A stretch of 59,106 bases of DNA, counting the filler. It is 5 parts of 5 records of this genome, joined end to end, with 100 filler letters (N's around TTAATTAATTAA, not from the genome) between each part and the next. Parts side by side here need not be neighbours in the genome. Positions count along the whole stretch, not along the records: positions 27,026 to 46,839 come from DRR378314_117; 4 more parts are not named here. The stretch is one strand, 5' to 3'. Position numbers and translations under genes: made by a program. The notes beneath the pieces were generated by a model. It did no database searches and was not told the DNA's origin. It saw only the letters and a program-made list of their open reading frames with translations. Positions 7,072 through 46,939 of this stretch are shown one piece after another (positions within the stretch are counted from its first letter, which is position 1; every line of letters starts with the position of its first letter).

Positions 7072-7171
7072 NNNNNNNNNNNNNNNNNNNNNNNNNNNNN
7101 NNNNNNNNNNNNNNNTTAATTAATTAANNNNNNNNNNNNNNNNNNNNNNNNNNNNNNNNNNNNNNNNNNNN
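7072..7171. other. Artificial contig linker
   Basis: N-run + TTAATTAATTAA (stops in all six frames) + N-run, 100 nt. Confidence 0.99.
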
Positions 7172-20099: not shown

Positions 20100-20199
20100 N
20101 NNNNNNNNNNNNNNNNNNNNNNNNNNNNNNNNNNNNNNNNNNNTTAATTAATTAANNNNNNNNNNNNNNNNNNNNNNNNNNNNNNNNNNNNNNNNNNNN
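20100..20199. other. Artificial contig linker
   Basis: N/TTAATTAATTAA/N. Confidence 0.99.
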
Positions 20200-26925: not shown

Positions 26926-27025
26926 NNNNNNNNNNNNNNNNNNNNNNNNNNNNNNNNNNNNNNNNNNNNTTAATTAATTAANNNNNNNNNNNNNNNNNNN
27001 NNNNNNNNNNNNNNNNNNNNNNNNN
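26926..27025. other. Artificial contig linker
   Basis: N/TTAATTAATTAA/N. Confidence 0.99.
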
Positions 27026-27048
27026 GTTTAACTTGACAGTGGGAGTCA

Positions 27049-27114
27049 TACCAACGCCGCCAGCAGGGGCTGGAGCACGCAGTGCGAAAGTCCCTCTGGC
27101 TGGCTTTGTTAAAG
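27049..27114 (-). mobile_element. attC site of the SEC-C cassette (66 bp)
   Basis: Minus strand: CTTTAAC (R'') AAAGCCAGCCAGAGGGACT...AGCCCCTGCTGGCGGC GTTGGTA (R'), an imperfect hairpin 6 bp after the stop codon. R'' GCTTTAAC is the exact complement of the cassette start GTTAAAGC. Confidence 0.85.
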
Positions 27115-27120
27115 CTTTGC

Positions 27121-28254
27121 TCACCTTTGCCAATTAACATACTCAATTTTCTCTGGCTCAGGCAATAATGTATTTAGTATTTTATTAGATATACTATTTC
27201 CATGAGGTTCTACGAACATATTTACATTGTCATGGGATATTTCAACAATGCTTTCTTTATCATCACTGCTTAGCCCGTCCCACCACGTTGGTGAGAGAAA
27301 GTAGTTTTCAAAATTACTGAATATGTATTGCGCTAAGTACGTTGAAATGTCTTCTTTTGATTTAGACATAAGCGACTTCACCAAGGTTATGCAGGTATTG
27401 TGACAATGCTCCAACCACGAGAGAACAATATAACTCTTATGCCCATCATAAAATGATGTAAATGATAGTAAGTCAGGAACCACTTCAAGATCAGATAAAT
27501 CTTGAAGTTTAGTGTTATCAAAGGCGAAGTCTGGATTAACTGAACCACTAACTTGAACTGGAAATGGATTTGTATACTCGATTACAACAGCCCGTATATC
27601 ACTATAGTCATTCCTCTCTATGCCTTTATCAAATCTCTCTTTCTGATAGATATTGTCCCGCAATCCTGCTTCTGCCCCAATATTCGTGAAGAATGCCTGC
27701 TCCTGTATTTCGGCCTGCCTATAGGCAGGCTTCCCTTTATCTAGGTCAGCATTTACTTCATACATATCTACTAAGGCCGACTTCGTATAATACTCTCTAG
27801 CAAATGAACGAAAAGCGAGCTTGAAGCATTGTTCCTCTGATTTTGTGAATACCTCCTTTTCTAAGCAAGAAAAAAGTTGATCATCGTGTTTTGCGCAGAA
27901 ACCAGTAAACGTAGAGGCGTTGTTGATACCTATTTTTTCAGGACGGATTTTTCCATTATGTTTCTGAAGGCTTTCTAACCCTAACTTGATTCCTAAAACA
28001 TGGCCATCTACCGCGATGGCTTTTAGGCTTGAGCTTCTTGCTACGGTGTGGGCCTTAACTATCTTTTTTGCACATTCGCCATGCAGGCTCTTTGGCGCTG
28101 AACATATTCGTTTAGAGAATTTATCCCGCATTGATTTAGCGGCATCCCATGGTTCCACTGGTTTTTCGCTCTCTCTATCCCTATGACATTTCTTGTACTT
28201 TTTTCCCGAACCGCACCAACAGGGATCGTTTCGTCCGATTTTACCTTTCCCCAT
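27121..28254 (-). CDS. Cassette-borne SEC-C motif protein with HNH-like core (377 aa)
   Basis: N-terminal GRNDPCWCGSGKKYKKCH SEC-C motif, then C...C...AHTV and STFTGFCAKHD; SD GGAG; promoterless gene bounded by att sites. Confidence 0.85.
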   Translation of the reverse strand: MGKGKIGRNDPCWCGSGKKYKKCHRDRESEKPVEPWDAAKSMRDKFSKRICSAPKSLHGECAKKIVKAHTVARSSSLKAIAVDGHVLGIKLGLESLQKHNGKIRPEKIGINNASTFTGFCAKHDDQLFSCLEKEVFTKSEEQCFKLAFRSFAREYYTKSALVDMYEVNADLDKGKPAYRQAEIQEQAFFTNIGAEAGLRDNIYQKERFDKGIERNDYSDIRAVVIEYTNPFPVQVSGSVNPDFAFDNTKLQDLSDLEVVPDLLSFTSFYDGHKSYIVLSWLEHCHNTCITLVKSLMSKSKEDISTYLAQYIFSNFENYFLSPTWWDGLSSDDKESIVEISHDNVNMFVEPHGNSISNKILNTLLPEPEKIEYVNWQR

Positions 28255-28278
28255 TTAGTACTCCGTTCTGGTTTTGAG

Positions 28279-28378
28279 CTTTAACGCCCACTTAAGCGGA
28301 CTAAAATAGTTGGCTAAAATGTGTAGCGGAGCGAAACTTAGCCAACTGTTTTAGTTCCGTTTAAAGTGCTTGTTATGA
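28279..28378 (-). mobile_element. attC site of the first cassette (100 bp)
   Basis: Minus strand: TCATAAC AAGCACTTTAAACGGAACTAAAACAGTTGGCTAAG...TTAGCCAACTATTTTAGTCCGCTTAAGTGGGC GTTAAAG, a long imperfect palindrome with R''/R' boxes. Confidence 0.92.
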
Positions 28379-28393
28379 ATATATTTAGTTGGA

Positions 28394-28573
28394 TTAACGT
28401 GTTTTAAGAACTACCTCAATATCGCCATCAGTTTTAATGTTTTTTAAAAATCCACCGCACACAGAGCAATTTACAGATACTTTCTCTTTCCAACCTGGTG
28501 TGCCAGTAGAAACTTCAATTAGTTCTAATTCAGCATCGCAATGCTTACATTGGATGTTACCGATACAGCTCAT
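28394..28573 (-). CDS. Small zinc-ribbon protein in the first cassette (59 aa; absent from the ORF track)
   Basis: AGGAG SD, then MSCIGNIQCKHCDAELELIEVSTGTPGWKEKVSVNCSVCGGFLKNIKTDGDIEVVLKTR* with two CxxC pairs; it fills the cassette. Confidence 0.8.
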   Translation of the reverse strand: MSCIGNIQCKHCDAELELIEVSTGTPGWKEKVSVNCSVCGGFLKNIKTDGDIEVVLKTR

Positions 28574-28602
28574 TTTATAGCTCCTAATGTTAATTTGTGA
28601 AG

Positions 28603-28625
28603 ATATTCATAACAGCGTTTTACCA
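28603..28625 (-). mobile_element. attI-like recombination site at the head of the array
   Basis: Minus strand GGTAAAACGCT-G/TTATGAATAT. GTTATGAATAT is complementary to the R'' side of the first attC (ATATTCATAAC). TAAAAC-N3-GTT has the same layout as class 1 attI (TAAAACAAAGTT), and no attC-type fold lies upstream. Confidence 0.65.
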
Positions 28626-28633
28626 AGAATACC

Positions 28634-28657
28634 GATAAACACTCGCGAGTGTTTATC
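28634..28657. repeat. Perfect 24-bp palindrome next to the attI-like site
   Basis: GATAAACACTCGCGAGTGTTTATC. Confidence 0.9.
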
Positions 28658-28914
28658 CTATTCTAAGTAGATACACTTTAAAATTTATAATAATATTATT
28701 AACTTACTAACTTATGAGGAAGATGGCAATAAAAACTAGCCACTACAATAGCGAGAACTTACTTAATCGAGAATCAACATTTTTATTATACGAGAACAAC
28801 CAAATTAAACATGATTAAAGTCAATTACTTAACTTTAATAAAAAAATAAAGCGAGAATTCACATCGGGTATTTACCGAGAATTTTAGCTGCAATATCTTT
28901 GCAATGAATTATAA

Positions 28915-28930
28915 CTGTATAAATAAACAG
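28915..28930. promoter_or_regulatory. LexA (SOS) box
   Basis: CTGTATAAATAAACAG matches CTG-N10-CAG with an AT-rich spacer, inside a 12-bp inverted repeat (28907-28938). Confidence 0.85.
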
Positions 28931-28983
28931 TTATAATTTATTATCGCTGCCCCTCTTCGATTATGCTTAAAACAGCATAGCGA

Positions 28984-29006
28984 TAGCGCAAGAGAGCCTT
29001 GCGCTA
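28984..29006 (-). terminator. Hairpin after the M28 peptidase (probable terminator)
   Basis: TAGCGCAAG-AGAGC-CTTGCGCTA, 11 bp past the stop; the U-tail is weak. Confidence 0.5.
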
Positions 29007-29017
29007 CGCATAGTTAA

Positions 29018-30391
29018 TTATTTTATGTCCTGCTCAAATGCTCCTACATCACCTGGGAAAACGACGGGTGATTCAATGCCCTCTTTATTCACTGCGGCGA
29101 CACCAAAGTAATAGTTATCAATAACTACATTTTTAAGCGTTGCTTCGCTTACATCACCCACATAACGGCTAAATTGCCATTGTGGTTCACTGGTGTAACG
29201 CCAATAAATACGATAGCCAGCGGTAGCTTTATCCATGTTTTTTTGCCATTTCAATGTTGTACTTGGTTTGACTGCACCTGAGATTTCTACCCCCTTTGGT
29301 GGAGCAGGTGCCCATGCCATTGATGCGAGACTCACAGCATTAAGCGATGTCAGCTTAGCTGCATAATCAAAATCGACACCATCGATGGTATCACCATAAA
29401 CAATACCATTTTCTGTACGTAAATCTTGGTGTTGGTGGTTATAATTTTCATTGGTTTCCATAACCCGAACCGCAGCATAACCCATATCATTAAAGGGACG
29501 ATGATGGCCGCCACGGCCAAAACGGTCCAGCCGATAAACTAACATGGTGTCTAAATTTGGAATATAACGGTCTGCGACGGTGTCAATATACCGAGCAAGA
29601 TTACGGCTAGCGGAGTCAACTTCACCACCTGTAAAACGACGTTTGTGAGCCTGCTCTTTGGTTTCAACCACGCGCGTACCTTCAGAGAATATACGTGCAG
29701 TTGTATTATCGGTAACACCGTTAATACCTGTGATGTTGCCTATCATGTCGTTGTTTAATACGCCATGAATTTGCCAACCTTGCTGCTGGGCATGTTTTGC
29801 TAATATTTTACCCCCAAATAACCCCTGCTCTTCACCTGATAGCGCCGCATAAACGATTGAGCCATTAAACTTATAATTAGATAACACCCTAGCAGACTCT
29901 ATTACACCAGCAACACCCGATGCATTATCATTTGCGCCTGGTGAATCACTTGTAAAATCCATCACATCACTAACTCGCGAATCAATATCGCCTGACATCA
30001 TCACCATACGGTTTGGCTCATCAGTACCTCGTTGAATAGCAATAATATTTACAACTTCAACTGGATTTGGGATCCGCTTTTCACCAGAAATAGTATCTTT
30101 CACTTCGAGTACCTCAAGGCAACCACCACATTGCTTTGAAATAGCTTCGAACTCAGCTTTTATCCAGCGCCTCGCTGCACCAATTCCTCGGGTATTGGAT
30201 TGTGTCTCAGACAATGTATGCCGTGTACCAAAGTCGACAAGTGTTTGGATGTCATTTTTGATTCTAGCTGCAGAAACAGCGTGTGCAATATCATGTAATT
30301 TTTGCTGTTCTTGATACGAAGGTTCTGCGGCCAAAGTAGGCATTGCCAAAAACAAGCCACTTATCAAAAGTGCTGAATGTATACGCGTCAT
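29018..30391 (-). CDS. Secreted M28-family metallopeptidase with C-terminal FN3-like domain
   Basis: Signal peptide, GD.DSR, PGANDNASG, GEEQGL, NNDMIG and GGHHRPF motifs; C-terminal LKW...GYRIYW...YFGVAAV. Confidence 0.9.
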   Translation of the reverse strand: MTRIHSALLISGLFLAMPTLAAEPSYQEQQKLHDIAHAVSAARIKNDIQTLVDFGTRHTLSETQSNTRGIGAARRWIKAEFEAISKQCGGCLEVLEVKDTISGEKRIPNPVEVVNIIAIQRGTDEPNRMVMMSGDIDSRVSDVMDFTSDSPGANDNASGVAGVIESARVLSNYKFNGSIVYAALSGEEQGLFGGKILAKHAQQQGWQIHGVLNNDMIGNITGINGVTDNTTARIFSEGTRVVETKEQAHKRRFTGGEVDSASRNLARYIDTVADRYIPNLDTMLVYRLDRFGRGGHHRPFNDMGYAAVRVMETNENYNHQHQDLRTENGIVYGDTIDGVDFDYAAKLTSLNAVSLASMAWAPAPPKGVEISGAVKPSTTLKWQKNMDKATAGYRIYWRYTSEPQWQFSRYVGDVSEATLKNVVIDNYYFGVAAVNKEGIESPVVFPGDVGAFEQDIK

Positions 30392-30543
30392 TTTATTATT
30401 ACCTGTAGTAAACATAGTTGATGCTCTTTTTTATTAGGTATCAACACAGTACGATAGCTAATATAATGTTAAAACCATTTTGAGATAAACCTCCAAATTA
30501 TTCGCTAAAACGCAATGTTTTATGGCTATTAAAGCGTAGACAT

Positions 30544-30567
30544 AAAAAAACCAGCCTTAGCTGGTTT
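30544..30567 (-). terminator. Terminator of the bkd operon
   Basis: AAACCAGC/GCTGGTTT stem with a T-run on the minus strand. Confidence 0.75.
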
Positions 30568-30578
30568 CTTTAATAATG

Positions 30579-32144
30579 CTAGCTCATAGCCATCATCATT
30601 TTAGCTGGCTCTTCAAGGTAAGATTTCCACAAGTTATTAAAACGAGCAATAGTGCCACCATCTATGACTCGGTGATCACCAGACCAACTTACTTGCATAA
30701 TCGCTTTACTAACCACGTTTCCTTTTGAATCAAAACGCGGCAAGTGCTGCAATTTGCCCAGCGCAACGATTGCCACCTCAGGCTTATTAATAATAGGCGT
30801 GGCGATAGTACCGCCAATAGCACCTATATTGGAGATACTGATAGTCCCCCCTTTTAAGTCATCTGGACTAACTCGACCTTCTCTTGCCGCCTCGGTTAAA
30901 CGCGTTACCGCATTAGCCACATCAACAATGCTTTTAGATTGGCACTGTTTAATATTAGGCACTAAAAGACCAATCTTAGAATCAACCGCCATACCAATAT
31001 TGTGATCTTCAAAATACGTAAGCTCAGTGCACTCATCATTTACCTTAGTATTGAGTACTGGGAACTCTTTCAGTGCAAGTGATAGTGCTTTAATGAAAAA
31101 CGGCATCATTGTAAGCTTTACACCTTGCTGCTTATATTGCTCTTTTAAAGAACTACGTAGTGCAATTAACTCCGTCAAATCTATTTCGTCGCAAAAAGTA
31201 AAATGAGGGATAGTGCTCACAGAAGCAACCATTTGCTTAGCCATCGCAGCTTTAATGCCTTTTATTGACTCAACACGGGTTCCACCTGATGACGCTGTAT
31301 TAACACTTTGCTCGGTTGTGTCTGACTTAAGTGGCGATGTATCAATGGTATTGGGTACTTGGCCATTAACAAATTGTTCAATATCTTCTTTATATATTCG
31401 TCCATTCTTGCCACTTCCTGGCACACATGTCAGGTCAACATCCATCTCACGTGCTTTACGACGAACCGCAGGAGATGCAACCGCTTTTGCATTAACAACT
31501 TTAGCGCTGTTATTTTTTTCAACCGTCGCTTTTGGTTCAGCCGCGTTGGTCTGCGCTTTTACAACGGCTTTGTTCACATCAACATTGACTTGCTGCGTTC
31601 CCGCGATGCTCATTTGAAACAAAGGGCTGTGAACCTGCGCAACTTCGCCTTTTGCGTAATAAAGTTTATGAACGGTGCCGGTGTGCTTCGCTGGTATTTG
31701 CACCAAGGCTTTATCTGTCATCACATCACAAACAGCTTGATCTTCTTCAATCTGTTCGCCTTCTGCAACTAACCATTCAACGATTTCACACTCAACAATA
31801 CCTTCACCAATATCGGGTAAAATAAAATCTTCGAGTTGTTCACAAGAGCTATTGCTTTGAGTGCTCGCGCTTGGTTTTTCAATCTCTGGTGTTTTAGTCT
31901 CTTCACCTGCAACGTCCATTGCAAATAAAGGCGCATGAACAGCAGCAATATCACCTTTTTGATAATATAATTTTGAAATCACACCATCATGCACAGCTGG
32001 TATTTGTACCAGTGCTTTATCTGTCATTACATCGCAAATAGGTTGATCTTCAGCAACAGTATCACCTTCAGATACGAGCCACTCAACGACTTCACACTCA
32101 ACAATGCCTTCACCAATATCCGGTAAAATAAAATCTTTAGCCAT
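30579..32144 (-). CDS. bkdB: Branched-chain 2-oxoacid dehydrogenase E2 (two lipoyl domains)
   Basis: Two LPDIGEGIVECE...MTDKA lipoyl domains, ASPAVRR E3-binding domain and DHRVIDG catalytic motif. Confidence 0.93.
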   Translation of the reverse strand: MAKDFILPDIGEGIVECEVVEWLVSEGDTVAEDQPICDVMTDKALVQIPAVHDGVISKLYYQKGDIAAVHAPLFAMDVAGEETKTPEIEKPSASTQSNSSCEQLEDFILPDIGEGIVECEIVEWLVAEGEQIEEDQAVCDVMTDKALVQIPAKHTGTVHKLYYAKGEVAQVHSPLFQMSIAGTQQVNVDVNKAVVKAQTNAAEPKATVEKNNSAKVVNAKAVASPAVRRKAREMDVDLTCVPGSGKNGRIYKEDIEQFVNGQVPNTIDTSPLKSDTTEQSVNTASSGGTRVESIKGIKAAMAKQMVASVSTIPHFTFCDEIDLTELIALRSSLKEQYKQQGVKLTMMPFFIKALSLALKEFPVLNTKVNDECTELTYFEDHNIGMAVDSKIGLLVPNIKQCQSKSIVDVANAVTRLTEAAREGRVSPDDLKGGTISISNIGAIGGTIATPIINKPEVAIVALGKLQHLPRFDSKGNVVSKAIMQVSWSGDHRVIDGGTIARFNNLWKSYLEEPAKMMMAMS

Positions 32145-32152
32145 GATAACTC

Positions 32153-33130
32153 CTAAAATTCGACCGATTGCTTAATGGCAGCAAGTACTTTTAATGCATC
32201 TGGCACGTATTCTTTCTCAAGAGCCAGTGGGTAAGGTGTATCAAGTCCACATACACGTAAAATTGGAGACTCTAAATGTAAAAAGCATTCTTGCTGAATC
32301 GTTGCAGCAATCTCACTACCAAAACCGTTTGTGATAGGTGCCTCATGGCTTATTACTAAACGCCCAGTTTTCGTCACCGACTTAGCAATGGTTTCAACAT
32401 CCCAAGGTAATATGCTACGTAAATCAATTACTTCACAGCTAATACCTTGCTCAGCCGCTTGTTTTGCTGCATCTTCAATAATTTCCATTTGTGCGCCCCA
32501 AGCAAGTAATGTTACGTCACTTCCTTGCTCAACAACTTCAGCTTTACCAAGTTCAATGGTGTAATCCTCTTCAGGCACTTCACCAGTAGAGGCCCGATAT
32601 AAACGTTTAGGCTCGAAGAATATAACCGGGTTATCATCTTTAATAGATGCACGTAAAAGACCTTTTGCTTGGTATGGATTGCGTGGTACTACAATTTTAA
32701 GCCCTGGCGTATGTGCAAAGTACGCTTCTGGAGATTGTGAATGGTACAAACCACCTGCAATACCACCGCCGTAAGGTGTACGAATGGTCAAATTACCAAC
32801 ATTAAACTCATTTCCACTGCGATAACGGAATTTCGCTGATTCATTCACTATTTGGTCAAATGCAGGGAAAATATAATCTGCAAACTGGATTTCAGCCAGT
32901 GCTGGCGCACCAAACGCTGCAAGACCATTAGCAAAGCCCATTATGCCTTGCTCAGTTAGTGGTGTATTAAACACGCGATGTTGGCCATACTTTTCTTGTA
33001 AACCCGATGTCGCACGAAAAACACCGCCAAAATAACCAACATCTTCACCAAAAATACAAGCTTGAGGGTGTTCTGCCATGGTAATATCAAGGGCTGAATT
33101 AATTGCATGTAACATATTCATTTTAGCCAT
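32153..33130 (-). CDS. bkdA2: Branched-chain 2-oxoacid dehydrogenase E1 beta
   Basis: [40 protein letters not shown]. Confidence 0.95.
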
Positions 33131-34344
33131 TACTTAATTCTCCCTGCAGTAACTGGGTATGCGTCTGGATGCTGTTTAATATGTGATTTGAGTTGCTCAT
33201 ATTGACGTTGCAATGATGGAATTGGTGTATCGTAAACATCCGAGATTAACTCTTCCAGTGCTGGTTTTTCGACAACTTCAGCACGTTTCAATGCAGCTAA
33301 AATATCTTCACGAATTTGCTCTTTCGCTTTTACATCGTCTTCATCGTTAAGCCAATCTTTTTTGATTAACCACTTACGGAAACGTTCTATTGGGCAAGCT
33401 TGATAATTTGCTTCTTCTGCTTTTGAGCGATAGCCACTTGGATCATCCGATGTTGAATGTGCACCCAATCGATAAGCAATGGATTCAATTAATACAGGCT
33501 CACCTGTTGTTGAAGCAATTTCACGTGCTTTTTGCGTTGCGGCGAATACTGCTAAGGCATCCGCACCATCCACTCGAATTGTCTTAATTCCGTAGCCGAC
33601 ACCACGCGATGCAATACCATCACCTTTAAATTGCTCATCTGCAGGTGTTGAAATAGCGTAGCCGTTGTTACGCGCAAAAAATATAACAGGTGACTTGTGA
33701 ACTGCCGCCATATTTAAACCGGCATGAAAATCACCTTCAGATGCAGCTCCTTCGCCAAAATAACATATAGTTACGTTGTCTATTTTGCTGCTTAACTCAC
33801 CCGTTTTAGCGTCAATGTGTTTTATTTTTTGACCGTATGCGTAACCTGTTGCCTGTGGAATTTGCGTTCCTAATGGTGAGGAAATAGTCATGTAATTAAG
33901 TTCAGCACTGCCATAGTGTATTGGCATCTGGCGACCTTTACCTAAATCAAGTTCATTAGAAAACATCTGATTCATAAATTGGTCAAGGGTAAAACCACGG
34001 TAATGTAAGGCTGCTTGTTCACGATATTGAGCCATAATCATATCATCTTGATCAAGCGCAGCGGCTGATGCAGTAACCGCAGCCTCTTCACCTAAACATT
34101 GCATATAAAAGCTCACGCGACCCTGACGCTGTGCAGCTTGCATTCGTTCATCTAAAGCACGAATAAAGCGCATTGTCTCGTACAAACGAATAGCCGTTTC
34201 TTTCGTGATATCTGGTGCTGTTGCACCGCTAAGAATATCGCCATCCTCGTTTAAAATGCTCAAGGTTGGAATATTTAAGGCATGACCATCTATAAAAGCA
34301 AGTTCATGACTAATATTCTGCGATACGTTATTTGGGTTGCTCAT
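33130..34344 (-). CDS. bkdA1: Branched-chain 2-oxoacid dehydrogenase E1 alpha
   Basis: [30 protein letters not shown]...NN ThDP motif, [11 protein letters not shown]. Confidence 0.95.
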
Positions 34345-34476
34345 AACCTACCTTCTTTTGTTGTCGAATTTACAGTGCCAATTAGGTTAACCATTAAAGG
34401 TTAGTTATTATTATTGGTGATTTTTGCTAGGTTAAAGTTTGCAAAAACTGCACTGTAATTAAATTAAAGCTGCCAT

Positions 34477-34498
34477 CACTTTACGTTAACGTAAAGTG
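34477..34498. promoter_or_regulatory. LiuR-type operator upstream of the bkd operon
   Basis: Perfect palindrome CACTTTACGTTAACGTAAAGTG, matching the LiuR consensus TTTACGTwwACGTAAA. Confidence 0.8.
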
Positions 34499-34617
34499 TT
34501 ATTCAACTAATCATAGACAAATGCGCAGTAAATGGCGAGATAAAGACTGGAAAGTTAACTATACAATATAAACTGTTATTTTAAATCATATAGTTAACTA
34601 TAAATGGTGTGATGTTT

Positions 34618-35676
34618 TTAAATGAAATTGTCATTAATTTCAAGGGGTACAACCGTTAATAGAGCACGCTGCCCAAGTGCTACATCGGCGTTAGGAAAGA
34701 TGATTGCTTCCCCATCAACGTCAGCGTAATAACAGGTCTGACCATCAGTTGCGAGTAATTCGCCTTTAGCAAAGCCAGTAAAATTAACGGCATCATCAGA
34801 AAATGGAAATGAAAAGGCTTCTTCTGTTCGATTGATAGAACGATGAACTGAAAACAGCTCAAAGTCAGCTGCATCAAAATCCTTATATTCAACCCTTTCT
34901 TGACTAATTAATGCAGTTAACGTTTGCTTGGTTTGTAAGAATCGACTCATGTCGTTTTCACCAAATGGCTTTACCTGACCAAGTTCAACAGTAAATGAGT
35001 CTGCACCATGAACATACGACGAATAGTAACTAAATGTCGTTGCCGCTGACTTCATCATTAATACCGTATTGACACCGCAGCTTAGAAGAAATTGCAGCTG
35101 TGACTTTTTCCAAGGTTTACCATGAAGGTAAGGATAAACTGCAAATTTATCATTTTTTGAACCACGAATTGCCGTGTGCAAATCGTAATGACAACGCGAG
35201 CGATCTTCACCACCTCTAGCGTAAAAATCACTAACATATTGCTCAAGCTTCGCTGCACGAACTCGTTCGTTATTCATTGGTGTATTGTCGGTTGTATGGT
35301 GCCCATTAAAAAGTCGATTTAAATTCTCTTCAACAAACCGCTTACCAATATTAATTGACTGAGGGTTACCGTATATAAACAACACTCTTTGTGCTAAAAC
35401 TAACTCTTCACTGATGATGAGTTTAATTAATTCATCGCATATTTCTATTGGTGCAGTTTCGTTTCCGTGAACGGCACTAGAAAGTACGATATCTTTGGTA
35501 CTTGCGCACAAAGGTTGAAATTCAATCACCCCTGTATCATGCACATTAACTTTCGTACCGTTTTTTAAAGTAAATTCGCCTGCATCTAAGTGCCATTCAT
35601 TTTTACGGCTAAGAGTGAGGAAATCCCCAGAGTTTTTTAATTCTTCTATATAATTTGATGTGGCTGACATGTTCAT
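34618..35676 (-). CDS. astE: Succinylglutamate desuccinylase
   Basis: [36 protein letters not shown] and [12 protein letters not shown] motifs. The start may be 35670. Confidence 0.93.
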
Positions 35677-35700
35677 CGCCTTTTGTGTGGAGTAAATACA

Positions 35701-35726
35701 AAAACGGCTGATCAAGTCAGCCGTTT
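35701..35726 (-). terminator. Terminator after pgm
   Basis: AAACGGCTGA...TCAGCCGTTT stem with a T-run on the minus strand. Confidence 0.7.
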
Positions 35727-35744
35727 ATACAACAATATTTCAAG

Positions 35745-37382
35745 TTAGCTAATAACAGAATCAACTAACTTTTTGGCTTCTTTTTCAAGTAAAGCGAGAT
35801 GCTCTTCCCCTTTAAAAGATTCCAAATAAATTTTATAAATATCTTCAGTACCTGATGGACGTGCCGCAAACCAACCATTTTCAGTAACCACTTTTAACCC
35901 GCCAATGGCTGCATTATTACCTGGTGCATGCGTTAGCTTTTGTAAAATGGGCTCGCCTGCAAGAGTATCAGCAGTGACATCTTGCGCACTTAACCCTTTT
36001 AATCGTTGCTTTTGTTGTGAAGTAGCAGGTGCATCAATACGCTTATATAATGGTGCACCAAATTCTTGTTCGAGTTCTTTATATAATACCGACGGTGTTT
36101 TACCCGTTACTGCTAGAATTTCTGCAGCAAGTAACCCCATGATAAAACCATCTTTGTCTGTATTCCAAACTGTACCATCAAAACGAAGGAACGAAGCGCC
36201 TGCGCTTTCTTCACCACCAAATGCCAGCGAGCCTTCATTTAGTCCTTCTACAAACCATTTAAAACCAACAGGGACTTCTTTAACTTCATGCTTATTGCGT
36301 GAAACAACTCGGTCGATCATGGCACTAGAAACCAGTGTTTTACCTATTACAACATCTTTAGACCAATCACGGTGGTTGAGTAAGTAATCTATAGCCACTG
36401 CTAAAAAGTGATTCGGATTCATTAATCCATCTGGCGTGACGATACCGTGGCGGTCATAATCTGGGTCATTACCGATACCAATGTCGAAATCATCTTTTAA
36501 TGCGATTAAATTTGTCATTGCGTAAGGTGATGAGCAGTCCATGCGGATTTTGCCATCTTTATCTAAAGGCATAAAACCAAAACGTGGATCGACACTTTCA
36601 TTAACGACTGTAAGGTCTAAATTAAATTTTTCAGCAATGATTGGCCAAAAATTAATACCTGAGCCACCTAATGGGTCAATTCCCACTTTGATTTTTGCCT
36701 TAGCTATCGCCTGAAGATCAACTACATTGGTTAAATCATCAATATAGGGTGTCATTAAATCTTGATATTTGATAAAGCCAGAACGTGATGCTTTTGCAAA
36801 TGGAAACAACTCTACCTCAACTAAATCTTCAAGTAACAGTTGGTTCGCACGGTCTTCAACCCATTTTGTTACATCAGTATCAGCTGGGCCGCCATTAGGT
36901 GGGTTGTATTTAAAACCACCGTCTTCAGGCGGATTGTGCGAAGGCGTTACCACAATACCATCGGCGAGTTCATGTGGATTCGCTTTGTTATGGCAAACAA
37001 CAGCATGACTGATCACAGGTGTGGGTGTGAAATCATCGTTTTGCTGGGTTATTACTTGAACCTCATTCGCAACAAGTACCTCGATTGCCGAGTTATAAGC
37101 AGCTTCACTTAGTGCATGCGTGTCTTTGCCCAGAAAAAGCGGGCCAAATATGTTGTTTTGCTTACGATAGTCGCAAATAGCTTGAGTAATGGCGAGTATG
37201 TGTGATTCGTTGAATTTAACATCATATGAGCACCCTCGATGGCCTGATGTGCCAAAGGCAACGCATTGCTCAGGGTTCTGCTCTAAATCAGGCTCATTTA
37301 AATAATAAGCCGACACTAGTTTTGGTACATTAACTAAATCTGATTGCGTTGCAGGTTTACCTGCACCTGGGTGAATCGCCAT
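35745..37382 (-). CDS. pgm: Phosphoglucomutase
   Basis: [34 protein letters not shown]. Confidence 0.98.
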
Positions 37383-37397
37383 TACATTTCCTTATAT

Positions 37398-37994
37398 TTA
37401 TAAGTAGTCTCTAATTTTTTCTGCTTGTTCGGCACTGTAACCTAGACCCAGCGCCACCTCATGTAACATCATTTTTTTGCGTGTCGTATTAGAATTCGTC
37501 ATCACCCAATATTCACTATCAGTGATATTTTTTGGATTCATACTGCTACCACTATTAACAAGATCTTCTTTACTTGTTGCAAAATAAACCCGGTCACGGC
37601 CTTGTATATCAAGCACAGAAGAAAAACCGTCTTTATGGGTCCTGTGTAGTGCTGAGAGTATAAACAAAAAGCGTCCCACTACCCCTTTTTGCATGGCAAG
37701 TTCTTCTTTATTTAATACATTAAAGACACTAGCGCTTTTTTGCTGCATTTTCGTGACCGACGATTCATCAGTTCGCTCTTTATTAACTGTTTTAGTCGTT
37801 TTTTCGTTGAGCTGCTCAGACACGTCTAGCTTTTCTTTTGAATCGTTTGTTAAATGATTATCTGACGTTGTTTGTTCAATATCGCCGCTGAGGTTTAATA
37901 AACGACGCAAAATAGTTGATGCACTTTCGCCAATACTTTGCGTGTTACTCGCAATGTATTGATACAGCTCGTCGTCTATGTCAATTTTTTTCAT
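37398..37994 (-). CDS. seqA: Replication initiation negative regulator SeqA
   Basis: MKKIDIDDELYQYIASNTQSIGESASTILRRLL, GRDRVYFA, YWVMTNSNTTRK; located upstream of pgm. Confidence 0.96.
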   Translation of the reverse strand: MKKIDIDDELYQYIASNTQSIGESASTILRRLLNLSGDIEQTTSDNHLTNDSKEKLDVSEQLNEKTTKTVNKERTDESSVTKMQQKSASVFNVLNKEELAMQKGVVGRFLFILSALHRTHKDGFSSVLDIQGRDRVYFATSKEDLVNSGSSMNPKNITDSEYWVMTNSNTTRKKMMLHEVALGLGYSAEQAEKIRDYL

Positions 37995-38125
37995 GTGATT
38001 CCTGTCATTACGGGTCATATTATTTCTTTATCAATTTGATTATACCCAAACAAAATCTAATTCTCTATGCTTTGCAATTTGTTATTTCACTAGGCAAACT
38101 AAGCACACTTTTACTGGAGACCTAA

Positions 38126-38899
38126 ATGCGACTTAATTATAAACAAACTGGCCAAGGTGAACCTGTAATTCTTATTCATGGTTTGTTTGGCTCACTTGAA
38201 AACCTCAATGTCATTGCCAATGCATTGAGTGACCATTTTTTGGTAACCAATATTGATTTACGCAATCATGGCCGCTCACCTCATGCCGCGACCATGGATT
38301 ATCCTAGCATGGCACACGATGTTATAGATTTAATGGATAACTTAAACATCGAGCAAGCTCATATTGTAGGCCACTCTATGGGAGGTAAAGTCGCCATGCA
38401 ATTAGCTCATTTATTCGAAAACAGAGTCAATCGTTTGGTTGTACTTGATATTGCTCCTGTTGCTTATCAGGCACGACACACAGAAATTTTTAAAGCATTA
38501 AAAAACGTTGCAAGCCAAAATATTACAGACCGTAAACACGCTGATAAGTTGATGCAAGTGCATATAGAAGAAATAGGCGTGCGACAATTTTTATTAAAAA
38601 GTTTAGCCAAAAATGAGCACGGTGATTTTCAATGGCGGTTTAACTTAGCCGCACTAGATGAAAAATATGAAAATATTTTAGCCGATATTAAAGCAAATGA
38701 TTCTTGTTTATGCGATACTTTGTTTATCAAGGGTAATGAATCTGATTATATTTTGCCTACGTATAGGGATGTAATTATGTCTCGTTTTACGAACGCCAAG
38801 GCAAAAATAATTCACGGCGCTGGGCATTGGTTACATGCTCAAAAGCCTGATGCGGTTAATAAATCAATACTTGATTTTTTGCGCGCTACTAAGGCTTAA
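38126..38899 (+). CDS. ybfF: Alpha/beta hydrolase (esterase YbfF)
   Basis: HGLFGS, DLRNHGRS, GHSMGG, GHWLHA; divergent from seqA as in enterobacteria. Confidence 0.92.
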   Translation: MRLNYKQTGQGEPVILIHGLFGSLENLNVIANALSDHFLVTNIDLRNHGRSPHAATMDYPSMAHDVIDLMDNLNIEQAHIVGHSMGGKVAMQLAHLFENRVNRLVVLDIAPVAYQARHTEIFKALKNVASQNITDRKHADKLMQVHIEEIGVRQFLLKSLAKNEHGDFQWRFNLAALDEKYENILADIKANDSCLCDTLFIKGNESDYILPTYRDVIMSRFTNAKAKIIHGAGHWLHAQKPDAVNKSILDFLRATKA

Positions 38900-38989
38900 A
38901 TTTTATCGTGTGTTTTTATACAAGCGCACTAAATTATTATTATTTAGTGTGCTATAGTACGCGCCGTTTAATTTAAAGGTTATACGTTG

Positions 38990-39211
38990 ATGGTCAGTCA
39001 GTTAATTAACGAATTTGATACCCTTGGGTTGTATTTTGGCTTAGCCGGTGTGTTCTTTTTTATCGGTATGGCTATTCAAGACGTACTCAAACGTGGCAGC
39101 GTTCCTAAATATGGTCGCTACATAGTATGGCTTGTACTTTTTTTAGGCTGTTCTGGGTTTATTGCAAAAGGACTTATTCAAGTTTTTTGGCAAGGTGCGG
39201 GTGTAGGGTAA
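38990..39211 (+). CDS. Small two-TM protein (DUF2788-like)
   Basis: Two hydrophobic helices separated by VPKYGR; lies between ybfF and ybfE. Confidence 0.75.
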   Translation: MVSQLINEFDTLGLYFGLAGVFFFIGMAIQDVLKRGSVPKYGRYIVWLVLFLGCSGFIAKGLIQVFWQGAGVG

Positions 39212-39217
39212 TCTACC

Positions 39218-39496
39218 ATGGCTAAATCTGAAACAGACAGAACAACGCTCGATCTATTTGAATACGAAAAGCGCCCAGGCCGCCCTAAAACTAATCCTCT
39301 GCCTAGAGATATTCAGTTAAAGGTAAACAAACGTAATCAAATAAAAAGAGATAAAGCACGTGGTTTAAAACGTGTTGAATTTAAAGTTTCATCGCAGTTA
39401 TATCAAGCGTTAAGCGATATGGCCGATGCACAGAATATTAGCCGTAGTGCACTGATTGAAACAATTTTACAAGAAAGATTGGCTATTGATAGATAG
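39218..39496 (+). CDS. ybfE: Ribbon-helix-helix protein YbfE
   Basis: DRTTLDLF...RPGRPKTNPL.R..QL..NKRNQ..RDK.RGLKRVE. Confidence 0.92.
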   Translation: MAKSETDRTTLDLFEYEKRPGRPKTNPLPRDIQLKVNKRNQIKRDKARGLKRVEFKVSSQLYQALSDMADAQNISRSALIETILQERLAIDR

Positions 39497-39510
39497 AAGG
39501 TTTTAAGTTC

Positions 39511-40038
39511 ATGGCAAGTGTAGGTATTTTTTTCGGAAGCGATACAGGTAACACAGAACACGTAGCTAAAATGATCCAAAAAGAATTGGGTAAAAAGCTA
39601 GTGGCTGTTCATGATATTGCTAAAAGCTCTAAAGAAGAGATTGCAGAATTCGATTTAATCTTATTTGGTATTCCTACTTGGTACTATGGTGAAGCACAAT
39701 GTGACTGGGATGACTTCTTCCCTGAACTTGAAGAAATTGATTTTGAAGGTAAGCTTGTCGCTATTTTTGGTTGTGGTGACCAAGAAGACTACGCTGAATA
39801 CTTTTTAGATGCCATGGGTATGATCAATGATATCGTCACTGAGCGTGGTGCAATTATTGTTGGCCACTGGTCAACTGAAGGTTATGACTTTGAAGCTTCA
39901 AAAGGCATGGCTGACGACAATCATTTTGTTGGTTTAGGCATTGATGAAGATCGTCAACCAGAACTAACTGAACAGCGCGTAAAAGCTTGGTCTGCACAGG
40001 TATACGATGAAATGTGTTTAAGCGAACTCGCTGATTAA
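39511..40038 (+). CDS. fldA: Flavodoxin
   Basis: FFGSDTGNTE, GIPTWYYGE, FGCGDQEDY. Confidence 0.97.
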   Translation: MASVGIFFGSDTGNTEHVAKMIQKELGKKLVAVHDIAKSSKEEIAEFDLILFGIPTWYYGEAQCDWDDFFPELEEIDFEGKLVAIFGCGDQEDYAEYFLDAMGMINDIVTERGAIIVGHWSTEGYDFEASKGMADDNHFVGLGIDEDRQPELTEQRVKAWSAQVYDEMCLSELAD

Positions 40039-40210
40039 TCAATTGCTTTTTAAATACACTTAGCTGGCTAGCTTTTGAGCTTTCAGACTGATTATTTAAA
40101 TAGACCTTTGCACTTGATCGTTTTGCACGTTATTCTAGTTATTGCTAATGTGTCGTGCACACCTTTTATAGGTGTACCAGAGTAACCAATAAAAAATTGA
40201 GACAGATTTA

Positions 40211-40651
40211 ATGACTGATCACAACTTGGAATTAAAAAAAGCCGGTTTAAAAGTAACATTACCGCGTATTAAAATTTTAGAGATTTTACAATCTCCAGAT
40301 AACCAACACATCAGCGCTGAAGATGTTTACAAAATTCTGTTGGATTTAGGCGAAGAAATTGGCCTTGCAACTGTTTATCGCGTGCTTAACCAGTTCGATG
40401 ATGCAGGTATTGTTTCTCGCCATCACTTTGAAGGTGGAAAATCAGTATTTGAATTATCTGGTAGCACTCACCACGATCACCTTGTGTGTTTAAAATGTGG
40501 CAAAGTTATTGAGTTTGAAGACGAATTAATTGAGCGTCGCCAGGTTGAAATTTCTGAAGCGAATGGAATTAAATTAACTAACCATTCTCTATATCTATAC
40601 GGCGAGTGTACTGATACGCAAGCGTGTAAAGCTTTCTCTGATAACCAATAA
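40211..40651 (+). CDS. fur: Ferric uptake regulator
   Basis: GLKVTLPR, GLATVYRVL, HHDHLVC..C. Confidence 0.98.
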   Translation: MTDHNLELKKAGLKVTLPRIKILEILQSPDNQHISAEDVYKILLDLGEEIGLATVYRVLNQFDDAGIVSRHHFEGGKSVFELSGSTHHDHLVCLKCGKVIEFEDELIERRQVEISEANGIKLTNHSLYLYGECTDTQACKAFSDNQ

Positions 40652-40671
40652 TTAGGTTATTAATAGGTAAT

Positions 40672-40699
40672 AAAAAACCTGCATAATGCAGGTTTTTTT
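40672..40699. terminator. Bidirectional terminator between fur and glnS
   Basis: AAAAAACCTGCAT-A-ATGCAGGTTTTTTT. Confidence 0.85.
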
Positions 40700-40723
40700 G
40701 TATCAAGTGTTTATTGAGCAGAA

Positions 40724-42385
40724 TTACTTCTGCTCAATTTTAGCCCATGAATCACGAAGACCGACGGTCTGATTAAACACTAACTCTTCAGATTTAGTAT
40801 CACGACTAAAGTAACCTGTTCGTTCAAACTGGAAACCTTGAGCTGGAGCCGCTTTTGCAAGTGAAGGCTCAACCTTGGCATTAGTTAAAACAACTAATGA
40901 TTCAGGGTTTAGTGTAGTGGCAAAATCTTCAGCCGCAGCTGGATTTGGTACACTAAACAAACGGTCATATAAACGTACTTCAGCTGTCACTGATTCAGTT
41001 GCACTTACCCAATGAATTACACCTTTAACTTTACGTCCGTCACTTGGGTTTTTACCAAGTGTTTCAGGATCATAAGTACAGTATATAGTTGTAATTTCAC
41101 CCGTTTCATCTTTTTCTACGCGATTCGCTTTTATCACATAAGCACCACGTAAGCGTACTTCTTTATCAAGTACTAAACGTTTAAACTTATTATTAGCCTC
41201 TTCACGGAAGTCTTCGCGTTCAATGTAAAGCTCACGAGTGAAAGGAACATCGCGACGCCCCATTTCTTCCTGATTAGGGTGATTAGCAACAGACAATGTT
41301 TCAACTTCATCCGAAAAGTTTTCAATTACAACTTTAACAGGATCAAGCACAGCCATTGCTCGCGGTGCATTTTCGTTTAAATCTTCACGGATACATGCTT
41401 CAAGCATGCCCATTTCAACCATATTTTCTTGCTTAGTAACACCAATGCGTAAACAGAACTCACGAATAGAAGCAGGTGTATAACCACGACGACGAAGGCC
41501 AGCAATTGTCGGCATACGTGGATCGTCCCACCCTTCTACGTGCCCATTTACCACTAAGTCATTTAACTTACGCTTGGACATTATTGTATATTCAAGGTTT
41601 AAGCGTGAAAACTCAATTTGCTGCGGATGACATTCTAGGCTGATATTATCAAGTACCCAATCGTATAAACGTCGGTTATCTTGGAACTCTAGTGTACACA
41701 AAGAGTGGGTAATACCTTCAAGCGCATCTGAGATACAGTGCGTAAAATCGTACATTGGGTAAATGCACCACTTATCAGCAGTTTGATGATGATGAGCAAA
41801 GCGTACGCGATAAATAATTGGATCACGAAGCACCATAAATGAGCTCGCCATATCAATTTTAGCACGTAATACACACTCACCTTCTTTAAACTCACCATTA
41901 CGCATTTTTTCAAATAAGGCGAGGTTCTCTTGTGGAGAAGTATCACGAGTTGGGCTATTTTTACCCGGCTCTTTTAATGTGCCACGGTACTCACGAGCTT
42001 GATCAGCTGTCAAAAAGCATACATAAGCAAGGCCTTTTTCAATAAGCTCAACAGCATAGCCATATAAGGCATCAAAATAGTTAGATGAATAATTAATTTC
42101 ACCATCCCACTTAAATCCTAACCACTGCACATCTTCTTTTATAGAATTTACATAGTTGATGTCTTCTTTTTCTGGGTTAGTATCATCAAAACGTAAATTA
42201 CAAAGACCGCTATAATCTTGGGCGATTCCAAAATTCAAACAGATAGATTTTGCATGGCCAATATGTAAGAAACCATTAGGCTCTGGAGGAAAACGTGTAT
42301 GCGTAGTCGCATGTTTCCCAGATGCTAAATCTTCATCAATACGGGTTCTAATAAAATTACTTGGGCGATTCTCAATTTCCGCCAT
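40724..42385 (-). CDS. glnS: Glutamine--tRNA ligase
   Basis: [17 protein letters not shown] (HIGH), [21 protein letters not shown]. Confidence 0.98.
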
Positions 42386-42624
42386 AGGAGTACAATCCTC
42401 ACATAAGTGCATGGTGATAAAACTAATGTATTATTACAAAAACAAACCTTAACATACAGCAATAGATTTAGGTTTCTTGCATATTATTGAAACTATGGGG
42501 TAGCTGAAATTATTGATTATTCAATTGTAAGCTAGGAATGAAGATAATTTGTTCTAGCGCAATAAAAGAGTCATTGAAACACGTTAAAGTAGCGCCATTA
42601 TCGAAACATAATTAGGGACAAATA

Positions 42625-43695
42625 ATGGCTTCACTATCACAGCACCGTGTTTATATTCCGACCACCGCACGCGCAAACCAGTACATTCTTGCTGAATTTA
42701 ACCCAAGCAATGAGTTCTATGCAAATTTTACAGATCCTCAACAATGTTATGAACGCTTATCACGTCAGCTTTTTGCATTATGTGACGAGTATGAACTGCA
42801 TAATGTACATTTAATTGCGAATGATAAACTGCCCGTTGTCAGGTTTCATGAAGAGTCATATAACCTACAGACAGCTAAACAGATTTTATTTTTTTATAAC
42901 CCACGCTATCACGAAGCGCACAAATGCTTTTATAACGATGGTCAGAAAAGTAAAAAAATTAGATTACTTTTTTTAGCAACAGGTGATGATCTACGTGCCA
43001 ATAGTGCAATCTTCCACGCTAAAGTTGTGAAGGTGCTTTCAGCACTACAAAATAGCATCCTTGAAGGGGAAGAACAGTTCAAAGTACGTGACCATCAGCA
43101 TCTAACATATGATCTATTTGCTAAAGCAAAGGGCTGTAAAGAAAGCTACGGGTATAAATTACGCGGCTTATATCAACGTTATCAAAGCAGGCATTGTTCT
43201 TTACCTAAAGAACATAACGAGATGACATATGTGACATTTAGGATTCCAGTGACACGTATGCTCAAAACACAATTCCAACATTTAATGAATAAACCAAATT
43301 ACGTTGATTTTTATAATCACTTTTACACGTTACTTGTTCAACAGTGTGAGTCTAAGCAGCTAAACTTAGCTGCTATGGTTGCAAATGGTTGCATGCCTAT
43401 TATACGTAACAGTCAAATTGATAAAAATGATAGCAATAGTGAACTACAAAAACTGAGCTTTTCTACTACAGAAAATGTGCCGCAATACAGTCAACATTGG
43501 TTGGATGACAAACTTGTTGAAACGATGCACTTTGTAATTGTTGCAAGCGATAATGATGAGCAAGGAGTTGGCCATGGCCGGTTTATGAATAAGGTGGAAA
43601 GTGTGATCCGCGAAATGGTTGAACCTTTGGCTATAAACAAAGAGCGTCAAGACCTCACTGTCAGATTTTTTCAGCACATTAGTTATTTCGAATAA
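42625..43695 (+). CDS. Conserved hypothetical protein (DUF3083-like)
   Basis: 356-aa ORF with SD; RVYIP..AR.NQY and RDHQHLTYDLF motifs recalled from DUF3083. Confidence 0.7.
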   Translation: MASLSQHRVYIPTTARANQYILAEFNPSNEFYANFTDPQQCYERLSRQLFALCDEYELHNVHLIANDKLPVVRFHEESYNLQTAKQILFFYNPRYHEAHKCFYNDGQKSKKIRLLFLATGDDLRANSAIFHAKVVKVLSALQNSILEGEEQFKVRDHQHLTYDLFAKAKGCKESYGYKLRGLYQRYQSRHCSLPKEHNEMTYVTFRIPVTRMLKTQFQHLMNKPNYVDFYNHFYTLLVQQCESKQLNLAAMVANGCMPIIRNSQIDKNDSNSELQKLSFSTTENVPQYSQHWLDDKLVETMHFVIVASDNDEQGVGHGRFMNKVESVIREMVEPLAINKERQDLTVRFFQHISYFE

Positions 43696-43704
43696 ACAGG
43701 CAAT

Positions 43705-43733
43705 AAAAAACCCCATAAAACTGGGGTTTTTTT
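43705..43733. terminator. Bidirectional terminator
   Basis: AAAAAACCCCA...TGGGGTTTTTTT between convergent genes. Confidence 0.85.
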
Positions 43734-43753
43734 ATTAACAATACAAAGGGCAG

Positions 43754-44761: not shown

Positions 44762-44953
44762 GGTTTTCCTATTTTGCTTTTAAAACCCGCAAGGGGCGTT
44801 TACCGAATCGTAAATCCGGCGCATTGGGGCGCATATTTTACGCTTTTTCTTTTTAAATGCAAAAAAACCTATGATTGTCTGGTTTTTACTGTCAGCGATG
44901 CATAGGACTAAGCTATAATAGCGTTCAGATTTATGAAGATTTAAATTACTCAT

Positions 44954-46294: not shown

Positions 46295-46296
46295 TT

Positions 46297-46839: not shown

Positions 46840-46939
46840 NNNNNNNNNNNNNNNNNNNNNNNNNNNNNNNNNNNNNNNNNNNNTTAATTAATTAANNNNN
46901 NNNNNNNNNNNNNNNNNNNNNNNNNNNNNNNNNNNNNNN
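46840..46939. other. Artificial contig linker
   Basis: N/TTAATTAATTAA/N. Confidence 0.99.

Follow-up and report, generated by a model that had tools for sequence, protein, structure and literature searches.

The window analysed here, 59 kb of DNA, is made of five contigs whose joiners have the form N44-TTAATTAATTAA-N44. One of these, a 19.8-kb contig of the marine genus Pseudoalteromonas (27026-46839), carries on its minus strand two complete gene cassettes and the beginning of a third, all co-oriented, and the array is interrupted at 27026 by the contig end (N-linker from 27025). The array is followed by a convergent core-genome neighbour, an M28 peptidase gene (29018-30415, minus strand; PF04389 in Pfam, 5.5e-21) with orthologues across Pseudoalteromonas and other Alteromonadales. 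A sequence-only reading had described the locus as a cassette array with an attI-like head and an SOS box but no integrase gene; all of these elements are in the sequence, and no IntI was found by tblastn.

Cassette 1 (28285-28612, minus strand, 328 bp) starts as G|TTATGAATAT at 28613|28612, the top strand being the minus strand of the window, and its own attC contains ATATTCATAAC (reverse complement of 28372-28382), the 11-nt complement of that start. Cassette 2 (27055-28284, minus strand, 1230 bp) starts as G|TTAAAGCT at 28285|28284 and its attC contains the 9-nt complement AGCTTTAAC (reverse complement of 27108-27116). That each cassette begins with the complement of its own R'' had been read from the sequence and holds for both, with the length in cassette 2 corrected from 8 to 9 nt. 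As the contig is structured, the third cassette is truncated after its first 29 nt (27026-27054, minus strand, starting at 27054); the same 33-37 nt are found at 100% identity in other genomes, beside different attC sites (e.g., G001:C40:34461-34493). The 59-aa ORF of cassette 1 (28573-28394) has two CxxC pairs and no family in Pfam, NCBIfam or PADLOC. In the 377-aa protein of cassette 2 (28254-27121), the sole recognised feature is an N-terminal SEC-C metal-binding motif (PF02810, 2.2e-10, residues 8-24), to which the NCBIfam matches are likewise confined. A defence role for this protein is unsupported, the PADLOC matches spanning only the 20-residue SEC-C motif. The cassette ORF bodies had no DNA match among the matches listed for 140 genomes of the genus, with two candidates scored per genome and a further 51 matches beyond the listing, which makes for a weak negative. 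A consensus scan of the minus strand of 28614-28936 gave no promoter-like site for the cassettes; if Pc lay inside intI, it would have been deleted along with it.

Both cassettes end in attC sites, located 1.2 kb apart. attC1 (28279-28378, minus strand, 100 nt; R'' TCATAAC, R' GTTAAAG) belongs to a genus-wide attC repeat family, with relatives of the segment in at least 103 of 140 Pseudoalteromonas genomes. attC2 (27049-27114, minus strand, 66 nt) is GC-rich, with AGCTTTAAC in its top-strand R'' region and GTTGGTA as R'; a heuristic hairpin scan overlooked it until R-box pairing was imposed, and that scan gave way to a covariance model based on 14 attC sites taken from other genomes, window sequences excluded. 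The consensus structure has compensatory changes in 10 of 19 pairs. attC1 scored 77.9 bits (E 6e-13) and attC2 33.7 bits (E 6e-4), so the sites passed the covariance-model test proposed for them, and both are beyond chance. At E<=1, the 59-kb window held no further matches beyond these two and the reverse strand of attC1, where the strand asymmetry is pronounced (77.9 bits on plus vs 21.6 on minus). The bottom strand of attC1 folds at -22.0 kcal/mol and the top strand at -18.6, with two extrahelical bases in the 3' arm of the plus (bottom) strand; a constrained fold of attC2 gives -14.9 kcal/mol. For both sites, attC2 included, the plus strand of the window would be the bottom strand that folds and recombines. 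An Rfam search of 27026-29100 returned nothing meaningful (best E-value 0.67).

The head of the array reads TAAAACGCT-GTTA. The attI core (28610-28645, minus strand) consists of the crossover G|TT at 28613|28612 followed by AGCGTTTTACCAAGAATACCGATAAACACT, and homology among 13 copies starts exactly at TAAC|AG; the ~35-nt core by itself is also found in further genomes. The crossover arrangement (TAAAAC, 3 nt, GTTA) may resemble that of the class 1 attI1 simple site, a likeness that serves as a lead. Beyond the crossover lies a relic (28614-28936, plus strand) homologous to the crossover-to-intI-start region of complete integrons. Some 320 bp are collinear with the TAAC|AGCG crossover-to-start-codon regions of two intact intI genes (G083:C15 and G079:C1) and one pseudogene (G001:C6), with 88%, 86% and 84% identity, respectively, over 28610-28931. 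Collinearity with intI-adjacent attI regions bears out the earlier impression that the head junction is attI-like, and we assign it as attI by homology and position. Insertion of cassettes at a secondary site does not fit, the junction and the 320 bp beyond it being homologous to intI-adjacent attI regions.

Several elements can be recognised within this segment. A palindrome, GATAAACACTCGCGAGTGTTTATC (28634-28657), lies ~20 bp from the crossover, where a scan flags it as resembling a minus-strand terminator; the inner stem of the hairpin is kept via two-sided changes in other copies (CACTCG/CGAGTG vs CACTTT/AAAGTG). Five direct CGAGAA repeats (28752-28881, plus strand; at 28752, 28768, 28791, 28852 and 28876) occupy 130 bp, vs three CGAGAA elsewhere in the 19.8-kb contig, and across seven copies CGAG is invariant in all but one of the five repeats, and almost so in that one. 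A 31-aa plus-strand ORF with a good Shine-Dalgarno (28724-28819) was rejected as non-coding, its start being ATA or ATC in the G083 copies and its frame broken by indels elsewhere. The predicted LexA (SOS) box CTGTATAAATAAACAG (28915-28930, plus strand), which had been placed about 300 bp on from the junction as a perfect box, lies 302 bp from G|TT; CTGTATN6ACAG has no second match across the 59 kb (0.07 expected). The three copies linked to intI carry the box unchanged, 16-20 nt before the intI ATG, and a -35-like TTGCAA at 28899-28904 may belong to the intI promoter.

Homology to intI-adjacent regions ends within 6 bp past the LexA box, where the relic abuts the 3' flank of the M28 gene (28937-29017). 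According to an alignment of relatives and a negative tblastn, this flank contains two hairpins and no intI sequence, and the hairpin AGCGCAAG...CTTGCGCT is also present in genomes without an integron relic. MAFFT places the first part of the flank (28937-28990) loosely against the opening 50 nt of intI, with a similar fit to the M28 flank of relic-free genomes. The 87 bp from the LexA box to the M28 stop codon leave no room for intI, as had been argued, and tblastn of three IntI proteins against the 59-kb window gave nothing at E<=0.01. intI is absent across 18 kb on the attI side; in the opposite direction the contig runs out, yet array polarity places the expected intI on the attI side. G001, G112 and G083 have the same LexA-box-to-M28 junction, as G008 does in part; G070, G120 and G025 have the relic with further deletions. 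Comparison shows a former integron from which intI was removed, and removed cleanly, as proposed: collinearity with regions that run up to the intI start codon ends just past the LexA box and gives way to the M28 flank.

Very probably, this is the end next to attI of an array belonging to a sedentary chromosomal integron whose intI is gone and whose attI and LexA-box intI promoter region were kept. Relative to a complete integron, intI is missing, while attI (by homology), attC and a predicted LexA box are present. With two attC sites and no intI nearby, the locus is, in IntegronFinder terms, a CALIN that retains the entry site and the intI promoter. Among eight M28-linked copies, the LexA box is deleted in three, degenerate in one and intact in four, vs an attI core kept in seven. 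The box now has no gene to control and is most likely a relic in decay, not a control region that has been kept.

Integrase genes are the exception beside this attI type. An intact intI adjoins two of the 14 copies examined, a pseudogene one and none the remaining 11. The attI-Pint regions of G083:C15 and G079:C1 lead into IntI proteins of 320 and 318 aa, mutually 98.7% identical, the former reaching 387 bits against TIGR02249 (cut-off 265); we refer to these as type B. In G001, the closest genome compared, the intI of C6 is a pseudogene with three lesions (two stops and a frameshift), and the sole intact integrase shares 40.6% identity with type B and comes with an attI region of another kind. 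The platform is present in G070 and G112, with no integrase above the family cut-off in either. At each attI copy to which the model was applied, attC sites lie towards the cassettes and are oriented alike (G079:C1, G083:C15, G071:C2, G070:C12, G057:C1 and two metagenome contigs); attI copies in G025 and G083 have no detectable attC beside them (best 17 bits), and the crossover of G120 is mutated to TAGC. In metagenomes, a 30-nt attI core pattern had no match and a second, gapped pattern found just the two contigs mentioned, with homology from 28608 in both, attC on the cassette side and no IntI similarity; one of them stops at its contig end.

Whether different cassettes occupy the 28613 junction in relatives could be answered from the 13 copies compared, each of which has a different insert at the same crossover; within 400 nt left of it, no pair shows BLAST similarity. 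The relic of the window is 98.4% identical to those of loci L070 and L078, and the first cassettes differ three ways among the window, G001:C45 and G112:C8, whose relics are ~98% identical. In the plankton metagenome X9, three Logan contigs extend to 28608, 28609 and 28613, each running on into a sequence of its own, and in X6 one contig joins 27058 to 28610; the comparison covers contigs of four of the 21 listed runs, and such loose contig ends may stem from paralogous attI copies at other loci. Contigs of the four runs leave 28402-28573 uncovered in all four and 27112-28229 in three, gaps that carry no weight. Different first cassettes beside integrase-less relics ~2% apart suggest that exchange post-dates the loss of intI in some lineage, which would require an integrase acting in trans. 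We consider the chances about even that cassettes have been exchanged at attI in this way since intI was lost. Alternatively, homologous recombination could have brought in the different first cassettes along with the relic, from donors where an integrase had been at work.

Without intI in cis, the locus would be unable to rearrange itself. Excising cassettes (attC x attC) or inserting them (attI x attC at the G|TT crossover, 28613|28612) would depend on an integron integrase from elsewhere in the cell, for which the natural candidate would be the cognate type B IntI that adjoins attI regions of 84-88% identity at a different locus in relatives. We tentatively put forward, as something that may well prove wrong, a distributed integron in Pseudoalteromonas, in which one or no resident integrase is accompanied by several attI landing pads at core-genome loci. 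Pads lacking an integrase, such as the one beside M28, would then be kept up and not be wreckage; homologous recombination would carry them from species to species, and they would take up cassettes in trans whenever a cognate IntI, resident or transiently acquired, is at hand. Consistent with this, intI is missing from 11 of 14 attI copies, the attI core persists longer than the LexA box, and the relic keeps 76-98% identity while nearby four-fold sites retain only 35-46%.

The strongest rival, whose probability we place somewhat below even, is an inert fossil: no site-specific recombination has occurred at attI since intI was lost, and the differences predate the loss or were imported wholesale with M28 and the attC repeats as homology arms. 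Identity declines from 97-100% in the relic to about 80% in M28, a gradient from which we conclude that homologous recombination of the relic segment occurs, and the comparison with L078 (relic 98.4%, M28 four-fold sites 34.5% identity) points to a recent segment transfer. Lineage-specific deletions, the mutated crossover, attC-free copies and the two carriers without an integrase are also in keeping with a fossil. It accounts less readily for three different first cassettes beside relics that are ~2% apart and share the integrase-less junction, with an exchange boundary exactly at G|TT, or for an attI core kept in seven of eight M28-linked copies when the LexA box is intact in just four. The lesions, missing attC, mutated crossover, missing integrases and LexA box decay fit decay as well as use.

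It is much less likely that the array was split by rearrangement and is the other half of a locus whose integrase persists elsewhere in the genome without its own attI. Rearrangement is among the CALIN origins listed by Cury et al. (2016; PMC4889954), but every intI of the type seen has its own attI-Pint, including the pseudogene of G001, a genome that also has an M28-linked copy. This makes the M28-linked attI an extra copy, not one that was displaced, and the break between LexA box and start codon is the same in several species. That an intI was dropped or collapsed in assembly is next to impossible even though the window concatenates draft contigs, since what follows the LexA box is the same integrase-less junction in the independent assemblies G001, G112 and G083, and Logan contigs from four other runs span 28657-29089 without extra sequence.

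CALINs, defined as clusters of attC sites lacking an integron-integrase (Cury et al., 2016; PMC4889954), are common and their origin is usually untraceable, because the attI sites of most integrons are unknown and not searchable and a recognisable intI pseudogene nearby is missing for 95% of CALINs, according to that study. Loss of intI is one of four origins proposed there, and mobilisation of cassettes by an integrase elsewhere is speculated upon (PMC4889954). The locus described here offers a clean, dated case in which the entry site and the operator of the lost integrase are still legible, and its integrase-less platform is common to, and exchanged among, species, with the first cassette varying beside near-identical relics. 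If loading in trans is true, intI-based integron counts understate the cassette-capture sites per genome, and silent arrays could be revived by a newly arrived integrase. Otherwise, the locus still serves as a marker series of integron decay, operator first and attI later.

Like CALINs, the locus carries two or more attC sites while lacking an intI nearby; unlike those described by Cury et al. (2016; PMC4889954), it demonstrably keeps attI and the LexA-box promoter region, and retention of attI means that it could receive cassettes, beyond donating them. It shares with the complete type B integrons G083:C15 and G079:C1 the crossover, attI core, hairpin, five CGAGAA repeats, LexA box and attC family (86-88% over 322 bp), but they have a 318-320-aa intI 16-20 nt past the LexA box where the window has the M28 3' flank. 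With sedentary chromosomal integrons of the Vibrio type, as described by Cambray et al. (2011; PMC3108266), it has in common divergence of intI promoter and array, a LexA box in that promoter and a host among the marine Gammaproteobacteria. That account describes the inactivation of integrases as pervasive, with 43-46% of intI homologues predicted inactive (PMC3108266). In the Vibrio type, intI is usually still present, intact or mutated, whereas in the window it is wholly absent and the operator persists.

The window comprises five contigs joined by four linkers (N44-TTAATTAATTAA-N44; 7072-7171, 20100-20199, 26926-27025 and 46840-46939). The contigs have G+C contents, in order, of 57%, 58%, 60%, 39% and 51%, and it is unlikely that all five come from one organism. 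Among them, matches to Pseudoalteromonas were confined to the fourth (27026-46839, 39.4% G+C), with the genus supported by orthologues of the neighboring peptidase gene. The cassette array forms the left end of this contig. The nearest comparison genome, G001, is 98% identical to 28608-31000.

Judged from sequence comparison, 28610-28936 is a true attI plus intI promoter region from which the integrase gene, including its start, is missing. This assignment is based on collinearity with intI-linked copies, on attC sites on the cassette side and on a negative tblastn search. Further attI copies were sought in 140 Pseudoalteromonas genomes, and those in G083 (contig C15, 88% identity) and G079 (C1, 86%) lead directly into open intI genes of 320 and 318 amino acids. 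The two integrases (type B) are 98.7% identical, that of G083 scoring 387 bits on TIGR02249 (cut-off 265), and they share only ~40% identity with the other, intact integrase of G001 (type A; C40, 500.6 bits). G001 itself carries a second copy of 28610-28931 (C6:394480-394801, 84% identity), followed 17 nt on by an integron-integrase frame (TIGR02249, 332 bits) that is 94% identical to the type B proteins and is interrupted by two in-frame stops and one frameshift. In the intI-linked copies, homology to the window starts exactly at TAAC|AG and proceeds in collinear order through a conserved hairpin, an invariant A/T-rich stretch, five CGAGAA direct repeats and an identical LexA box, with the intI ATG 16-20 nt past the box. 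In the window, the LexA box (28915-28930) matches a pattern that occurs nowhere else (0.07 matches expected); homology ends at most 6 bp from the box and gives way to the 3′ flank of the M28 peptidase gene (29018-30415, minus strand), whose convergent stop lies 87 bp from the box. A tblastn search of the window with three IntI proteins returned no IntI similarity. With a covariance model, attC sites in the same orientation were found on the cassette side in G079:C1, G083:C15, G071:C2, G070:C12, G057:C1 and two metagenome contigs. The sequence-only reading had proposed an attI-like head junction, a LexA box with only about 85 bp before the convergent M28 gene and no intI at the locus, all of which is borne out.

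The CGAGAA repeats (28752-28881; spacings of 16, 23, 61 and 24 nt) are conserved in every copy of the attI-promoter region and probably constitute a protein-binding array; they matched no known regulator. At the hairpin (28634-28657), which is ~20 bp away from the crossover, the inner stem persists in other copies despite changes on both of its sides; the element may serve either as a terminator that insulates the array or as a binding site.

The visible array contains two ORFs on the minus strand, and an imperfect palindrome follows each of them. The first (28573-28394, 59 amino acids) contains two CxxC pairs and matches no family in Pfam or NCBIfam; the second (28254-27121, 377 amino acids) has a SEC-C motif at its N-terminus only. 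An attC covariance model based on 14 sites from three other genomes, with the window sites left out, has a consensus structure in which 10 of the 19 pairs show compensatory changes and the 3′ arm contains unpaired bases. It matched the plus strand at 28279-28378 (77.9 bits, E 6e-13) and 27049-27114 (33.7 bits, E 6e-4), with 21.6 bits (E 0.16) for the reverse of the first site and no further match at E<=1 in the whole window. The bottom strand of 28279-28378 folds at -22.0 kcal/mol, leaving two bases extrahelical in the 3′ arm. Together, strand asymmetry and fold establish that the plus strand of the window is the recombining bottom strand and, therefore, that the array reads on the minus strand, as first proposed. 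Cassette 1 spans 28612-28285 and cassette 2 28284-27055, each starting with the complement of its own R″ (11 and 9 nt, respectively), again as first read; cassette 3 begins at 27054 and is truncated where the contig ends. The beginning of this third cassette (27026-27062) recurs over 33-37 nt at 100% identity in G001:C40, G101, G093 and G097; because the attC sites preceding it there differ, the cassette appears to be widely shared, and this probably caused the contig break.

The earlier reading had allowed for a misassembly, yet the junction between LexA box and M28 gene is common to the window, G001, G112 and G083 (degenerate in G008), and Logan contigs from four other runs span 28657-29089; the integrase-less junction is not an assembly artefact. 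At the M28 locus, the relics of G070, G120 and G025 carry further, differing internal deletions, and the opposite end of the array shows synteny in G112, G025 and G070 (esterase and treble-clef zinc-finger genes). The covariance model found 12 attC sites at this locus in G112, 2 in G070 and none in G025 or G083. Integrase-less copies of the same attI type also occur at other loci (G071:C2, G070:C12, G057:C1 and metagenome contig L151). In a tally of 14 copies, which leaves out at least four further copies or fragments and L150, intI downstream is intact in two, a pseudogene in one and missing in 11. At least one intact integrase is present somewhere in the genome in four of six carriers of the M28-linked copy (G001, G025, G120 and G083); none above the family cut-off was found in G112 (96% complete) or G070 (100% complete).

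The complete genome of G070 holds three copies or fragments of the attI type (C10:554533, C12:531754 and C10:786466) and no integrase above the cut-off. The ~35-nt attI core alone, at 86-91% identity, is found in G017:C21, G017:C16:190253, G013:C41, G013:C113 and G012:C12, with two cores about 950 bp apart in G017:C21 (208833-208866 and 209783-209818). Within the M28-linked integron remnant of both G070 (L050:16398-17402) and G008 (L053:1929-2933; 95.8% identity) lies a gene of 334 aa that weakly matches an IS200-like Y1 transposase; in G008 it occupies the place of the missing attI core, and it may be a mobile element targeting such sites.

Sequence comparison also shows homologous recombination to be carrying the relic segment from species to species. 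The window relic is 98.4% identical to each of loci L070 and L078, from two other assemblies, whereas identity to the window at M28 four-fold degenerate sites is 93% for L070 and 34.5% for L078, and the similarity to L078, 97-100% within the relic, drops to ~80% inside M28. These M28-orthologue loci probably overlap the genomes of the 140-genome search, so that the two sets are not independent. Because of such transfer, sharing of the relic by seven species is no proof of an ancient deletion. The type B integron itself probably moves between species as well: the integrases of two species (L054:2614-3576 and L055:10397-11353) are 98.7% identical, which looks too close for vertical inheritance, as the eight species other than L070 reach only 35-58% identity to the window at M28 four-fold sites.

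Whether intI was cleanly deleted, or the site is a satellite platform served in trans, was the alternative originally posed, and this either/or reading is supported. Different sequences do occupy the junction, a point that the first reading had put forward for checking: among 13 copies, no pair shows BLAST similarity in the stretch of at most 400 nt that flanks the crossover toward the cassettes (just 103 nt for G001:C45). In three intI-less copies with relics ~2% apart the first cassette differs from copy to copy, and the change falls exactly at G|TT (28613|28612), which suggests that, once intI had been lost, this attI type was still acted on by some integrase. Three contigs from a single plankton metagenome extend as far as 28608-28613, from where each runs on into a different sequence, and in another metagenome run one contig links the cassette-3 start to 28610; these contigs may derive from paralogous attI copies and are weak evidence of use. 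Five signs point to decay, not use: in G001, the closest genome, the cognate integrase is a pseudogene; the intact integrase of G001 has a different attI region; two carriers of the M28-linked copy (G112 and G070) have no integrase; the crossover is mutated to TAGC in G120; and the LexA box is intact in four of eight M28-linked copies, compared with seven of eight for the attI core. We consider continued or recent use of the site in trans to be evenly balanced.

CALINs are defined by Cury et al. (2016; PMC4889954), who name intI loss as one of their origins, give attI as unknown for most integrons, encountered an intI pseudogene close by in only 15 of 279 CALINs and speculate on CALIN mobilization by an integrase elsewhere. 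Cambray et al. (2011; PMC3108266) describe LexA control of intI as widespread and integrase inactivation as frequent. A full-text literature search found no paper on "integrase-less" attI in integrons, though an earlier report may exist. By definition, the locus is a CALIN, and it differs from a complete integron in one feature, the integrase. What distinguishes it is that attI and operator are retained, that it recurs and has spread within the genus, and that there are indirect signs of cassette exchange after intI loss.
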